IMG/VR virus record: IMGVR_UViG_2529292736_000006 | Length of the DNA: 9,636 bases | Reading direction: 5' to 3' (one strand) | Source of the DNA: a virus | Taxonomy: Duplodnaviria; Heunggongvirae; Uroviricota; Caudoviricetes | Shown here: piece after piece, positions 2,490 to 6,099 of the stretch | Layout of the letters: each line of letters starts with the position of its first letter | Position numbering within the stretch: the stretch's first letter is position 1 | Made by a program: the position numbers and the translations under genes | Notes under the pieces: model-generated | Database searches by the model: none | What the model saw: only the letters and a program-made list of their open reading frames with translations | What the model was told of the DNA's origin: nothing

Positions 2490-2685
2490 TTCTGATCCTC
2501 TTCAAAAGGCTACCTGTTATTGGTCGATTTAAGTCAACCTTTACCGCTGATTCGTGGAACAGATATTCTCTTCCATCCTTAACCGGAGGAGGGAATATCT
2601 TGCATTCGCGCACCCATCGACGAACTGTTTCAAGGCTTCTTGGGCGTCGCTGGCGAGCGTTCCACTCCTGAAGTGTCAAGTACAT
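2467..2685 (-). CDS. xis: Lambda excisionase Xis (72 aa)
   Basis: 72-aa ORF MYLTLQEWNARQRRPRSLETVRRWVRECKIFPPPVKDGREYLFHESAVKVDLNRPITGSLLKRIRNGKKAKS, recognised as lambda Xis. Its 3' end overlaps the int start by 23 nt as in lambda. Confidence 0.95.
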   Translation of the reverse strand: MYLTLQEWNARQRRPRSLETVRRWVRECKIFPPPVKDGREYLFHESAVKVDLNRPITGSLLKRIRNGKKAKS

Positions 2686-2711
2686 CGCAAAGTCTCCGCA
2701 ATTACACGCAA

Positions 2712-2732
2712 GAAAAAACCGCCATCAGGCGG
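2712..2732 (-). terminator. Candidate intrinsic terminator between the orf55-like gene and xis
   Basis: On the minus-strand transcript: 5-bp GC stem (GCCGG/CCGCC, plus-strand 2719-2723 and 2728-2732), 4-nt loop, then a U6 tract (plus-strand A6 at 2713-2718). The stem is short and it overlaps the orf55 stop codon. Confidence 0.45.
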
Positions 2733-2892
2733 CTTGGTGTTCTTTCAGTTCTTCAATTCGAATATTGGTTATGTCTGCATGTGCTATCTGCGCCCATATC
2801 ATCCAGTGGTCATAGCAGTCATTGATGTTCTCTGCTTCGATAACTCTGTTGAATGGTTCTCCATTCCATTCACCTGTGACTCGGAAGTGCAT
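2725..2892 (-). CDS. Small hypothetical protein (55 aa), same size and spacing from xis as the 55-codon ORF I recall downstream of xis in lambda
   Basis: ATG at 2892 to TGA at 2725-2727, found by manual translation (MHFRVTGEWNGEPFNRVIEAENINDCYDHWMIWAQIAHADITNIRIEELKEHQAA). It is absent from the supplied track because it is under the length cut-off. GGAG lies 5-8 nt upstream of the ATG and the gap to the xis start is 40 bp. Confidence 0.7.
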   Translation of the reverse strand: MHFRVTGEWNGEPFNRVIEAENINDCYDHWMIWAQIAHADITNIRIEELKEHQAA

Positions 2893-2902
2893 TTATCATC
2901 TC

Positions 2903-2930
2903 CATAAAACAAAACTCGCCGTAGCGAGTT
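2903..2930 (-). terminator. Candidate rho-independent terminator downstream of the 142-aa accessory gene
   Basis: On the minus-strand transcript: 7-bp stem (AACTCGC/GCGAGTT, plus-strand 2913-2919 and 2924-2930), 4-nt loop, then UUUUGUUUUAU. It sits 45 bp after the 142-aa ORF stop and just upstream of the orf55 ribosome-binding site. Confidence 0.5.
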
Positions 2931-2974
2931 CAGATATAATTTCCACCAAAGGCAGTAGTTGCTGATGCTAAGAA

Positions 2975-3403
2975 TTATTCAATATCTATTCCTGTAATAT
3001 CTTTTATCTTTTTCCTTGCAAAGCCTTTTGCTAGTGATTTTGAAACACTTATTAGTGTACTAATTCCCTCATCCTTAAAGTTTGTTTTTATAGTTTGCCA
3101 GACCTCCTTTTGACGCAAGTCAGCAATAAAATCATGCCCTCTTGCTGTCAACCTCAGTGGTACTTCGATCCAACTATATCCAACACCTTCCCCTAACTCG
3201 TTGGACATTATATGACCGAACCCAGGTTTTCCATCAACCCTGACTATTAATTCGTAGTCGCATAATAATCGCATATGGAAAATAAAATTTTGGTCATATC
3301 TATTAAAGCCATTATCCTCTAGTTCACTAAGCATCGTGTCAGGGCCATGAGTTTTTTCGAATGCGATAAGTAGATCTTTTAGATATTGCTGGTCTAATTT
3401 CAT
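2975..3403 (-). CDS. Hypothetical 142-aa protein, AT-rich accessory gene (moron); function unknown
   Basis: ORF with ATG at 3403 and TAA at 2975-2977, with a strong GGAGG ribosome-binding site 5 nt upstream. Composition is visibly AT-rich compared with the flanking lambda-like genes. I do not recall it in lambda at this position. A tentative resemblance to small phage DUF2513-type proteins (a ...LTARGHDFIADLRQKEVW... motif) is from memory only. Confidence 0.8.
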   Translation of the reverse strand: MKLDQQYLKDLLIAFEKTHGPDTMLSELEDNGFNRYDQNFIFHMRLLCDYELIVRVDGKPGFGHIMSNELGEGVGYSWIEVPLRLTARGHDFIADLRQKEVWQTIKTNFKDEGISTLISVSKSLAKGFARKKIKDITGIDIE

Positions 3404-3413
3404 TGCCGCCTCC

Positions 3414-3425
3414 GTGACATGTCAC
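3414..3425. promoter_or_regulatory. Perfect 12-bp palindrome GTGACATGTCAC (candidate operator or protein-binding site)
   Basis: Read directly at 3414-3425. It lies in the 28-bp gap between the Ea8.5-like stop and the 142-aa gene start codon, immediately upstream of its ribosome-binding site. A 5-bp stem with a 2-nt loop is too tight for a stable RNA hairpin, so a DNA-binding site is more likely. Confidence 0.3.
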
Positions 3426-3431
3426 AGAGAT

Positions 3432-3770
3432 TTATATCATTAATTTTGTTTCGTGCCAGCCTTTGGTCACCCAGCATTGTGAGTCACCATTACACGGGCA
3501 TGAATTAACAGGAACTCTCTCGCCGCACTTACCGCAACGTTTTCTGCTGATCGATTTTATACGCCAGCGCACACGTGCATCATCCTGGCGGCTCAGTAAC
3601 GCGATGTACTCACCAAACTCGTAAGGCGCATGCCTGAAGCGGCGCGTGGCTCAGTTACGATCCAGCATTTCAATTTCCTGAGCATCAAGTACAAGCTCCA
3701 GCTTACGCATACCGGATGATGCTTGCTTGGCTCTCTGATCGACTTTGCGCTCTGCTGATGATTTAGCCAT
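3432..3770 (-). pseudogene. Ea8.5-like ORF (N-terminal helical segment plus C-terminal Cys-rich zinc-ribbon-like segment) interrupted by an in-frame TGA
   Basis: A single minus-strand frame reads MAKSSAERKVDQRAKQASSGMRKLELVLDAQEIEMLDRN, then TGA at 3651-3653, then ATRRFRHAPYEFGEYIALLSRQDDARVRWRIKSISRKRCGKCGERVPVNSCPCNGDSQCWVTKGWHETKLMI and TAA at 3432-3434. Candidate starts are ATG 3770 and ATG 3710; the latter gives about 92 codons, close to the 93-aa lambda Ea8.5. Position relative to xis/orf55 and the two-part architecture suggest an Ea8.5 homologue. This is an inference, not a sequence identification. Confidence 0.45.
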
Positions 3771-3963
3771 TCTGCTTTTCCTGCATTAGGAGAAAGACAA
3801 TCATGGCGGCGCGGATACTTCCGGTATCTTTTTACTCGATATTACCCTTCAATGGCACATACAAGAAGAGAGCCATCAACAGGAGTGAGTGAGGAATCGA
3901 CAACCAGCAACGCTTAATTATCTATAGTGTCGTATTTGCTTCATAAAATATGGCGAATAACAC

Positions 3964-3998
3964 AAAGCCCGCAGCAGCTCATTGTGCGGGCTTTTCTT
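3964..3998. terminator. Strong hairpin terminator, possibly bidirectional, downstream of the 204-aa gene
   Basis: Perfect 10-bp stem AAAGCCCGCA / TGCGGGCTTT (3964-3973 and 3985-3994) with an 11-nt loop. The plus strand is followed by CTTTTCTTAT and the minus-strand reading by UUUGUGUUAUU. It lies about 65 bp downstream of the 204-aa ORF stop. Confidence 0.5.
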
Positions 3999-4063: not shown

Positions 4064-4678
4064 TTATCTAAAAGTCTTTCCACTTTTAACGTCTAGGTAT
4101 ATTCTGTTCGACAACGTCATTCCTCCGCAATATGTGAAATAGATGTTTTTCCCCTTATTGCTTGATGCCATCCACCCTCCGATTTCCTTAAAGTCGCTTT
4201 CCGTGCAGACCCCTTCGTTTATTAACTTCCTAGCTGCCGAAGAAAACTCTTTTTTGTATATACGGTAGTCATCAGATCCTTTGATTAAAGTATCATCTCC
4301 GCTCGCATTTTCAGCAGGATCTGATGGCCTTTCACTGCTAAGATCACTAAGTTTAACCCATTCTGAAAACTTGCCATTGACGATTCCGTTTTTTCTTGTG
4401 CAGGATTTATTACCTTCTTTAATATATTCGCTTTCCCCTCCCACACATGAGGCTGAATATGGCTCAGTTATACGAACCCATTCACCTTTTTTTTCTAGAA
4501 AATCTACGCCTTCCCTGAAAAATAGTTTCCCAGCCACTCCGCATTTACTTGAAGGGCAGGTATGTCTTTCCGTTCGATCAACAACAACCCAAAGTCTTGA
4601 TTCATTTTTTGCCATTGCCGATGGTATTTGAGATGAGACAATTAACGTAAGCCCTAAAATTAGTATTGATTTTTTCAT
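4064..4678 (-). CDS. Secreted or periplasmic Cys-rich hypothetical protein (204 aa), AT-rich accessory gene (moron); function unknown
   Basis: ORF with ATG at 4678 and TAA at 4064-4066; AAGGA ribosome-binding site 7 nt upstream. The N-terminus MKKSILILGLTLIVSSQIPSAMA-KNE looks like a Sec signal peptide with an AxA cleavage motif and no lipobox Cys. The mature part has 7 Cys and the gene is AT-rich. Confidence 0.85.
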   Translation of the reverse strand: MKKSILILGLTLIVSSQIPSAMAKNESRLWVVVDRTERHTCPSSKCGVAGKLFFREGVDFLEKKGEWVRITEPYSASCVGGESEYIKEGNKSCTRKNGIVNGKFSEWVKLSDLSSERPSDPAENASGDDTLIKGSDDYRIYKKEFSSAARKLINEGVCTESDFKEIGGWMASSNKGKNIYFTYCGGMTLSNRIYLDVKSGKTFR

Positions 4679-4768: not shown

Positions 4769-4779
4769 TGGATTTGCCC

Positions 4780-5685
4780 CTATATTTCCAGACACCTGTT
4801 ATCACTTAACCCATTACTGGCCTGCTGCCGCAGATATTCCCGTGGCGAGCGATAACCCAGTGCACTATGCGGATGCCATTCGTTATAATGCTCGAACGCC
4901 TCTGCAAGGTTCTTTGCTGCCGTTAACCCGTCTGGTTTAGGCATGATACTGATGTAGTCACGCTTTATCGTTTTCACGAAGCTCTCTGCTATGCCGTTAC
5001 TCTCCGGACTCCGCACCGCCGTGTTCTTCGGTTCAAGCCCCAACATCCGGGCAAACTGCCGTGTTTCATTAGCCCGGTAGCATGAACCATTATCCGTCAG
5101 CCACTCTACTGGAGACGCCGGAAGCTCGTTGCCGAAGCGGCGTTCCACCGCTCCCAGCATTACGTCCTGTACTGTTTCACTGTCGAAGCCGCCCGTAGTG
5201 ACTGCCCAGTGCAGTGCCTCACGGTCACAGCAGTCCAGCGCGAACGTGACTCGCAGTTTTTCTCCGTTATCACAGCGGAACTCGAACCCGTCAGAGCACC
5301 ATCGTTGATTGCTTTCTTTCACGGCCACTTTGCCAGTATGTGCCCGTTTCGATGGCGGTACAGCGGTTTTTCGCTCAAGCAACAGCGCATTCTGGCGCAT
5401 GATCCGGTAAACACGTTTGGCATTGATCGCAGGCATACCATCAAGTTCGGCCTGTCTGCGAAGCAGCGCCCATACCCGACGATAACCATACGTGGGCAGC
5501 TCTCCGATAACATGGTGTATACGGAGAAGCACATCCGTATCATCTGAGTGACGGCTGCGGCGACCATCTTTCCAGTCATCGGTTCGTCTGAGAATTACGT
5601 GCAACTGCGCACGCGACACCCGGAGACAACGGCTGACTAAGCTTACTCCCCATCCCCGGGCAATAAGGGCGCGTGCGCTATCCAC
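4780..5685 (-). CDS. insD: IS2 transposase OrfB (InsD, DDE integrase-like domain; normally expressed as an OrfAB fusion)
   Basis: 301-aa ORF ([34 protein letters not shown]...NRCLEI) recognised as IS2 InsD. It overlaps orfA in the -1 frame. Confidence 0.9.
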
Positions 5686-6008
5686 TTTTTTGCACGCCCG
5701 TATTCAACGGCTTCTTTAAGGAGTTCATTTTCCATCGTTTTTTTGCCGAGCAGGCGCTGGAGTTCTTTAATCTGCTTCATGGCAGCAGCAAGTTCAGAGG
5801 CAGGAACGACCTGCTCTCCTGCGGCCACAGCAGTAAGACTTCCCTCCTGGTATTGCTTGCGCCAGAGAAATAACTGGCTGGCTGCCACACCGTGTTGCCG
5901 GGCAACAAGGGAGACCGTCATTCCCGGTTCAAAACTCTGCTGAACAATAGCGATCTTTTCCTGTGTAGTACGCCGTCTGCGTTTCTCCGGTCCTAAGACA
6001 TCAATCAT
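5643..6008 (-). CDS. insC: IS2 OrfA (InsC, helix-turn-helix regulator, 121 aa)
   Basis: [56 protein letters not shown]... with ATG at 6008. The track's 136-aa version starts at an upstream in-frame ATG inside the inverted repeat and is probably not used. Confidence 0.9.
5685..5691 (-). other. IS2 A6G slippery motif for programmed -1 frameshifting (OrfA to OrfAB)
   Basis: AAAAAAG on the minus strand (plus-strand CTTTTTT at 5685-5691) in the orfA/orfB overlap, where IS3-family elements frameshift. Confidence 0.6.
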
Positions 6009-6099
6009 CTGCTCTCCAATGACTAGTCTAAAAACTAGTATTAAGACTATCACTTATTTAAGTGATATTGGTTGTCTGGAGATTCAGGGGGCCAGTCTA

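Follow-up and report, generated by a model that had tools for sequence, protein, structure and literature searches.

An opal stop in place of a conserved cysteine codon interrupts a PHROG 536-type regulator gene in the exo-xis region of a lambda-like prophage

We analyzed a 9,636-nucleotide stretch of Caudoviricetes DNA (IMG/VR record IMGVR_UViG_2529292736_000006; hereafter, the window) in which a protein-like reading frame is broken by one in-frame opal codon. The original prediction, made from the sequence, took this frame for a single gene resembling lambda Ea8.5, with the opal codon between a helical and a Cys-rich segment, and it left several readings side by side: a recent nonsense mutation, tolerated read-through or suppression, or a sequencing error. 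The locus raises the question of whether the codon marks a dead gene, a gene that is read past its stop, a pair of separate products, or a mistake in the record. Our answer is that the feature is very probably a nonsense-inactivated copy (a pseudogene, that is, a null allele) of a small phage regulator gene.

The interrupted frame lies on the minus strand and runs from 3770 to 3432 (339 nt, 112 codons plus TAA). It starts with an ATG (3770–3768), continues through 39 sense codons and meets the TGA at 3653–3651 as codon 40 (seen on the plus strand as 'tca' at 3651–3653); 72 further sense codons follow before the TAA at 3434–3432. Its translation is MAKSSAERKVDQRAKQASSGMRKLELVLDAQEIEMLDRN up to the TGA and ATRRFRHAPYEFGEYIALLSRQDDARVRWRIKSISRKRCGKCGERVPVNSCPCNGDSQCWVTKGWHETKLMI from there to the TAA. 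The expected frame of about 112 codons with a single in-frame TGA was thus confirmed on the minus strand, and a plus-strand reading of 3432–3770 was ruled out by its many stops. Also as expected, the segment stranded beyond the TGA has no ATG with which to start (the first in-frame ATG past the TGA is codon 111), its only internal GTG opens a 46-codon open reading frame (ORF), and the other frames are closed, the five of them holding ORFs of at most 53 aa. Chance alone can yield a frame of 112 codons with a single stop (we estimate approximately 2–3% per frame in random sequence), and the frame was recognized as a genuine gene remnant by homology (PHROG 536, 299 homologues), not by ORF length. 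The features of the locus are as follows, with the basis of each in brackets.

3432–3770, minus strand: the whole pseudogene, of the PHROG 536 type ('transcriptional regulator'), interrupted at codon 40 (profile match and RefSeq).
3654–3770, minus strand: 39-codon N-terminal ORF, the sole normally translatable part (ORF list, translation).
3651–3653, minus strand: opal TGA at codon 40, where homologues have TGT or TGC for Cys (DNA alignment, codon table).
3642, minus strand: synonymous marker C at gene nucleotide 129, giving CGC for CGT at Arg43 (haplotype comparison).
3432–3650, minus strand: stranded C-terminal 72 codons plus stop, lacking an ATG (translation, homologue alignment).
3432–3572, minus strand: mechanically called 46-codon GTG ORF inside the stranded part (ORF list).
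3414–3425, no strand: perfect 12-bp palindrome GTGACATGTCAC just past the 3′ end of the gene (sequence, context comparison).
3771–3830, minus strand: last 60 nt of the 3′ end of ninX/DUF2591, a remnant adjoining the ATG (comparison with related loci).
3845–3910, minus strand: N-terminal 22-codon fragment of a humD/umuD-like gene (S24 peptidase), truncated at a mosaic joint (PGAP, translation).

By the secondary structure of the model, the 39-codon ORF encodes a basic arm, a putative β-strand, and most of helix A, and contains neither helix B nor the Cys-rich module. Both of these are encoded in the stranded part, with C79, C82, C91, C93, C99, and H106 in the module. The 46-codon GTG ORF would be the only conceivable re-initiation product, and a putative one.

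The family to which the gene belongs was identified with Cys40 restored. The repaired protein matched PHROG 536 over residues 1–111 of 112 (E = 6.7e-49). Among 5.8 billion proteins searched, 299 homologues were found (best E = 5e-65), nearly all exactly 112 aa long, from Escherichia, Salmonella, Citrobacter, Klebsiella, and other Enterobacteriaceae, and a family profile compared with 1.84 billion cluster representatives detected 179 families at E ≤ 1e-3. A two-gene organization was found in none of the homologues, all of which were single uninterrupted ORFs. That the locus was originally one gene, as had been predicted, follows from these approximately 300 homologues, nearly all uninterrupted at 112 aa, and from their invariant Cys at codon 40. 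The helical-then-Cys-rich layout was also described correctly (predicted helices at residues 5–18, 30–42, and 52–67), and it was kept in profile-search relatives down to approximately 25% identity. The window copy lacks the feature that marks members of PHROG 536, an uninterrupted run of about 112 codons with Cys40; because of the TGA at codon 40, we class it as a pseudogene of the family and not as a functional member.

The Cys-rich segment follows the pattern C79-x2-C82-x8-C91-x-C93-x5-C99. The family set (C79, C82, C91/C93, and C99) is conserved family-wide and is present in the window's stranded frame. Among distant relatives (below approximately 40% identity), C79 and C82 were invariant, C99 was kept in at least 90%, and most had a Cys near positions 91–93. 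Cys40 was often, yet not always, present in these relatives, so it probably lies outside the core set of metal ligands.

No Pfam model for the family was found, and the weak, scattered matches to RHH_5, RHH_1, RepB, and Fer4_20 were all below threshold. The Cys-rich half matched Fer4_20 (a 4Fe-4S domain) weakly in 35 of 60 members (best E = 0.017). PDB searches with the protein and with family profiles returned no solved relative by sequence. The family may resemble the ribbon-helix-helix regulators of the CopG/Arc/MetJ type (YbfE NF008671, TraM, PutA, AmrZ, and antitoxin RHH proteins), with all matches below curated thresholds, but differs from them in its extra Cys-rich C-terminal module. 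Helix B and the CxxCG..P..C region also align weakly with TraR/DksA-type C4 zinc fingers over approximately 60 residues. The family profile matched F-plasmid TraR (6N57_M) and YbiI (2KGO) at E values of only 0.06–0.08, and the second Cys pair is arranged differently in these proteins; the likeness may serve as a lead and does not amount to membership. The structure model of the intact protein was of no more than moderate confidence (pLDDT 67), with a putatively ribbon-helix-helix-like N-terminal half. We infer that the intact protein is a dimeric ribbon-helix-helix DNA-binding regulator joined to a Cys4-type metal-binding module, for which zinc and Fe-S are both candidates.

The label 'Ea8.5-like' did not survive comparison, as neither sequence, Pfam, nor fold similarity was found. 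The proposed check, alignment to lambda Ea8.5, gave a BLASTP E value of 23. Neither the repaired 112-aa protein, nor either of its halves, nor sets of 60 and 54 relatives matched PF20735 at E ≤ 1, whereas lambda Ea8.5 itself did so at 1.1e-48. Searches of the PDB with the window protein and its family, by phmmer or profile, returned neither 2M7A nor 2M7B, which lambda Ea8.5 finds at 2.5e-18 and 9.5e-4, respectively. These two prophage homologues are described in Kwan et al. 2013, as cited in PMC8614690, as having a hybrid homeodomain/zinc-finger fold, and the predicted fold of the window protein gave no match to it. What the two genes have in common is the map position in the exo-xis region (xis - orf55 - X - ea22) and, generically, a small size and a layout with helices in the N-terminal part and cysteines in the C-terminal part; they differ in Cys spacing and in predicted fold, which is ribbon-helix-helix-like here. 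The earlier argument, that a two-part architecture fitting Ea8.5 speaks for one gene, was therefore right about the single gene and wrong about the kinship, and the label should not be propagated. The phi24B 'gp05' of the exo-xis modelling paper was considered as well and rejected as a different protein (winged helix-turn-helix plus coiled coil).

The ancestral state of codon 40 was read from the homologues. The same gene occurs, in gap-free alignments at 90–97% nucleotide identity, in the phages Chlobot (97% over the gene), TL-2011b (gp20, YP_007001971.1), and phiV10 (PhiV10p55, YP_512310.1; approximately 90% for the latter two). These copies share with the window the Cys set and the palindrome at the 3′ end but are uninterrupted, with TGT opposite the window's TGA; in phiV10 and TL-2011b, the gene site also differs and is not the exo-xis region. 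Two alignments, with 44 and 60 homologues (67–98% identity), showed Cys40 without exception, and across 88 DNA loci codon 40 was only TGT, TGC, or TGA, with TGT or TGC in 61. The codon that the homologues carry at this position, which the original prediction had proposed to look up, is thus a conserved Cys codon, and since it is TGT or TGC, the stop is explained by a single T-to-A change at the third codon position.

The TGA is a real allele. A sequencing or assembly error in one record has nothing in its favor beyond the prior that single-base errors exist, and its probability is practically nil: at least 25 complete E. coli genomes, coming from different laboratories, match a 451-bp region at 100% identity, and among them are three independent assemblies of ATCC 8739 and a number of NCTC strains. 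Alleles were counted among 5426 complete E. coli genomes with 55-mers centered on the codon, across whose central mismatch a 28-nt megablast word cannot seed. The TGA-specific 55-mer was present in 64 genomes and the epsilon15-type TGT allele in 276; for the lambdoid-type TGT 55-mer, 80 genomes matched at ≥95% identity, with 79 reaching ≥99%. TGA accounted for approximately 44% of the lambdoid-type copies in complete genomes. The allele was also found on 19 IMG/VR contigs and in none of the GTDB species-representative genomes.

The pseudogene status of this sequence is already known, as its RefSeq annotation precedes our analysis. In ATCC 8739, the identical 339 nt (NC_010468.1, 3145800–3146138) bear the RefSeq/PGAP pseudogene entry ECOLC_RS26175, 'hypothetical protein; internal stop', and PGAP raised the same 'internal stop' flag in three other genomes. 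What defines a pseudogene in the PGAP sense, a premature stop relative to full-length homologues, was reproduced here in independent assemblies. The ECOLC_RS26175 locus shares its prophage context with the window (ybhC - int - xis - orf55 - DUF2513 - pseudogene) and differs in having IS1 at about the place of the window's IS2-like element (4770–6097), a difference that assigns the window to another strain.

The history of the allele was traced through its haplotypes. The clade at least 96% identical to the window comprised three TGA haplotypes and several TGT haplotypes. The three were the window's own, one with A48S and Y50C, and one with A2T, G80R, and C99Y. In all eight TGA haplotypes, A at gene position 120, which makes the TGA, occurred together with C at position 129, nine bases downstream. 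Position 129 was T in all lambdoid-type TGT haplotypes and in the three epsilon15-type phages aligned, and G in a few other epsilon15-type copies. Because the TGA was always linked to the derived C129, we conclude that it arose once and that its flanks recombined afterwards; recurrent independent origin was rejected on the same complete linkage. The gene-carrying module (window positions about 2705–3913) occurred in several prophage backbones, namely one with a lambda-type int adjoining ybhC, a torI context, and an IS3-disrupted context. Of the predicted 'recent nonsense mutation', the nonsense pseudogene stands; with three haplotypes in several backbones, 'recent' does not.

Other lesions were observed in the same clade. 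One locus (L043, IMGVR_UViG_2711768051_000004) has a second nonsense codon, TGC to TGA at Cys79, plus G104R, and loci L044–L047 are truncated at the 3′ end past Gly104 at another recombination joint. These lesions are independent and fall within the same transplanted lambdoid-context clade. In IMG/VR, disrupted loci numbered 22 of 39 in lambdoid contexts versus none of 41 of the epsilon15 type.

We compared non-synonymous and synonymous changes (N:S) among the classes of copies. Across the whole gene and past codon 40, respectively, N:S was 13:3 and 8:3 for the TGA haplotypes (pairwise pN/pS 1.0), 11:6 and 9:5 for intact lambdoid-context copies (0.33), and 26:47 and 13:34 for intact epsilon15-type copies (0.16). 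The TGA haplotypes differed from the epsilon15 type over the whole gene (p = 0.0015) and downstream of the stop (p = 0.012) in Fisher tests that are indicative only, given the low counts and haplotypes that share ancestry and recombine. Downstream changes on the TGA haplotypes included R47H, Y50C, R66H, G80R, G80D, and C99Y, and at R47, Y50, R66, G80, and C99 the family shows either no variation or conservation of at least 90%. The window's own haplotype shows, downstream of the stop, one amino-acid difference from the inferred intact ancestor (R47H), and the decay shown here is therefore that of the allele class and not of the window copy in particular. Part of the relaxation may also predate the stop, because intact lambdoid-context copies have a raised N:S (11:6) as well. 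Selection for loss or hitch-hiking, and not neutrality, could be behind the share of approximately 44% that the allele has reached.

These counts bear on tolerated leaky read-through, in which near-cognate decoding of UGA would give a low but useful dose of protein, leaving the gene attenuated and not dead. Of the stop codons, UGA is the most prone to leak in E. coli, and full-length protein might thus be made in small quantity; rare insertion of Cys would restore the wild type, and Trp could also be inserted. The downstream frame of the window haplotype is open and, except for R47H, like that of the ancestor, and the allele is common, with its 64 genomes. We nevertheless consider read-through unlikely. 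Conserved residues downstream of the stop are changed on the TGA haplotypes (8:3 against 13:34 in intact epsilon15-type copies), and Trp40 would displace a residue that is invariant in close relatives. A stimulatory structure after the stop was not found, the 71 nt around and after the TGA folding no better than shuffled sequences (z = −0.28). The leakiest UGA context is UGA-C, and the +4 base here is G.

Selenocysteine recoding would have UGA replace a Cys codon, and the TGA does align exactly with an invariant Cys codon, as in Sec/Cys homologue pairs, in a host species that has the Sec machinery. We regard it as exceedingly improbable. A SECIS-like structure was found neither by folding (the same z = −0.28) nor with Rfam, which gave no match at E ≤ 10 on the gene's strand between 3300 and 3900; its only two matches there were to chance-level eukaryotic snoRNA families on the opposite strand. 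The only small local hairpin, AGGC-AUGC-GCCU, is equally present in TGT alleles and is unlike the fdhF-type loop. In addition, the closest relatives are one base away, purifying selection after the UGA was not seen (8:3 against 13:34, p = 0.012), and distant members of the family do not consistently keep Cys40. Neither selenocysteine nor programmed read-through is supported. An alternative genetic code was rejected: TGA closes seven of 13 neighboring genes, xis, exo, and bet among them, so the genome reads TGA as stop.

The interrupted gene might instead yield two functional products, the 39-aa peptide and/or a 46-aa Cys-rich peptide re-initiated from the GTG at 3572. Annotation pipelines do call both pieces (phrog_34005, P0207, P0158, and a Chlobot CDS), and an AGGA lies approximately 10 nt upstream of the GTG. 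In all intact relatives, however, the GTG and AGGA are mere conserved codons for QDDARV, and homologues are never organized as two genes. Helix B, part of the predicted ribbon-helix-helix core, is missing from the 39-aa piece, decay is under way in the C-terminal piece, and the 46-aa call in Chlobot sits on an intact 112-aa ORF. Two products are accordingly a very improbable outcome.

In the Chlobot record (L001, PP925838.1), positions 2553–3031 are annotated as a 46-aa 'transcriptional regulator' plus an out-of-frame 105-aa 'UmuD-like protein'. The complete 112-aa ORF runs there without a break (2553–2891, minus strand), which makes the 46-aa CDS an annotation artefact. Other annotations list the truncated product as a protein: phrog_34005 (40 aa) matches residues 1–40, and P0207 (39 aa) is another called fragment of the N-terminal part. 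The 39-aa and 46-aa ORFs of other annotations, such as phrog_34005 and the Chlobot CDSs, can be read as fragments or mis-calls of one 112-aa gene.

We also considered the opal codon as a dosage valve, through which rare Cys, Trp, or Sec decoding would supply a trace of a regulator that is harmful at full dose in the exo-xis location. This is a long shot; if true, it would explain why the allele makes up approximately 44% of the clade in complete E. coli genomes.

The nonsense-inactivated gene has a traceable origin in its genomic context. Its native site in Salmonella prophages is the nin region, upstream of Q, and in epsilon15-like phages (phiV10 and TL-2011b) it lies directly upstream of the small terminase subunit. 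In the window, the ninX/DUF2591 remnant stands directly upstream of the ATG, from which we infer import from a nin-region context. The back-to-back fragments of ninX/DUF2591 and humD at 3771–3910 mark mosaic recombination joints. PGAP labels the humD fragment 'DNA repair protein, incomplete, missing C-terminus', and longer humD-type fragments in other genomes are named S24 peptidase or HumD.

We propose that recombination moved the gene from its nin- or terminase-proximal site into the exo-xis region of a lambda-like E. coli prophage, one integrated next to ybhC. The transplanted gene would have carried along 60 nt of the preceding ninX and would end at the conserved palindrome. In the new context, one T-to-A change would have turned the conserved Cys40 codon TGT into TGA, and translation would stop after 39 residues. 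The resulting peptide is expected to be non-functional because helix B and the metal module are removed; it would be inactive, unable to fold or dimerize like its relatives. The null allele would have arisen once, spread by recombination and vertical descent, and would now evolve free of protein-level constraint. A passenger gene brought into the exo-xis region by mosaic recombination would fit the relaxed constraint there.

All contexts examined (Salmonella, Citrobacter, and epsilon15-type) keep the palindrome GTGACATGTCAC at the gene's 3′ end. In these contexts, a TGA stop lies inside the palindrome, past which the sequences are not the same. Where the sequence downstream of native Salmonella and Citrobacter copies was examined, the gene had a terminator of its own after it. 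The palindrome is a candidate operator for the encoded regulator or, as another candidate, a module boundary or recombination joint.

The importance of the broken copy beyond annotation hygiene is little. As a modest example, it illustrates how an accessory gene decays once moved from its native nin- or terminase-proximal context, and the uncharacterized intact family, together with its palindrome, is the more rewarding target.

Several further elements were observed in the window. An IS3-family (IS2-like) insertion of approximately 1.33 kb occupies 4770–6097, with minus-strand ORFs of 136 aa (5643–6053) and 301 aa (4780–5685). It is missing from nearly all related prophage loci, alignments with which stop at 4769 and resume at 6098, and its junction in the window was found in none of the 5426 complete E. 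coli genomes. A GC-rich hairpin (AAAGCCCGCA...TGCGGGCTTT) at about 3962–3996, followed by T-rich sequence on both strands, looks like a terminator and lies between the humD fragment and a 204-aa gene. This 204-aa ORF (4064–4678, minus strand), named 'hypothetical protein' in RefSeq and matching no Pfam family, has a signal-peptide-like N-terminus (MKKSILILGLTLIVSSQIPSAMA), and it may encode a moron product of the exo-xis region that is secreted or located in the envelope.
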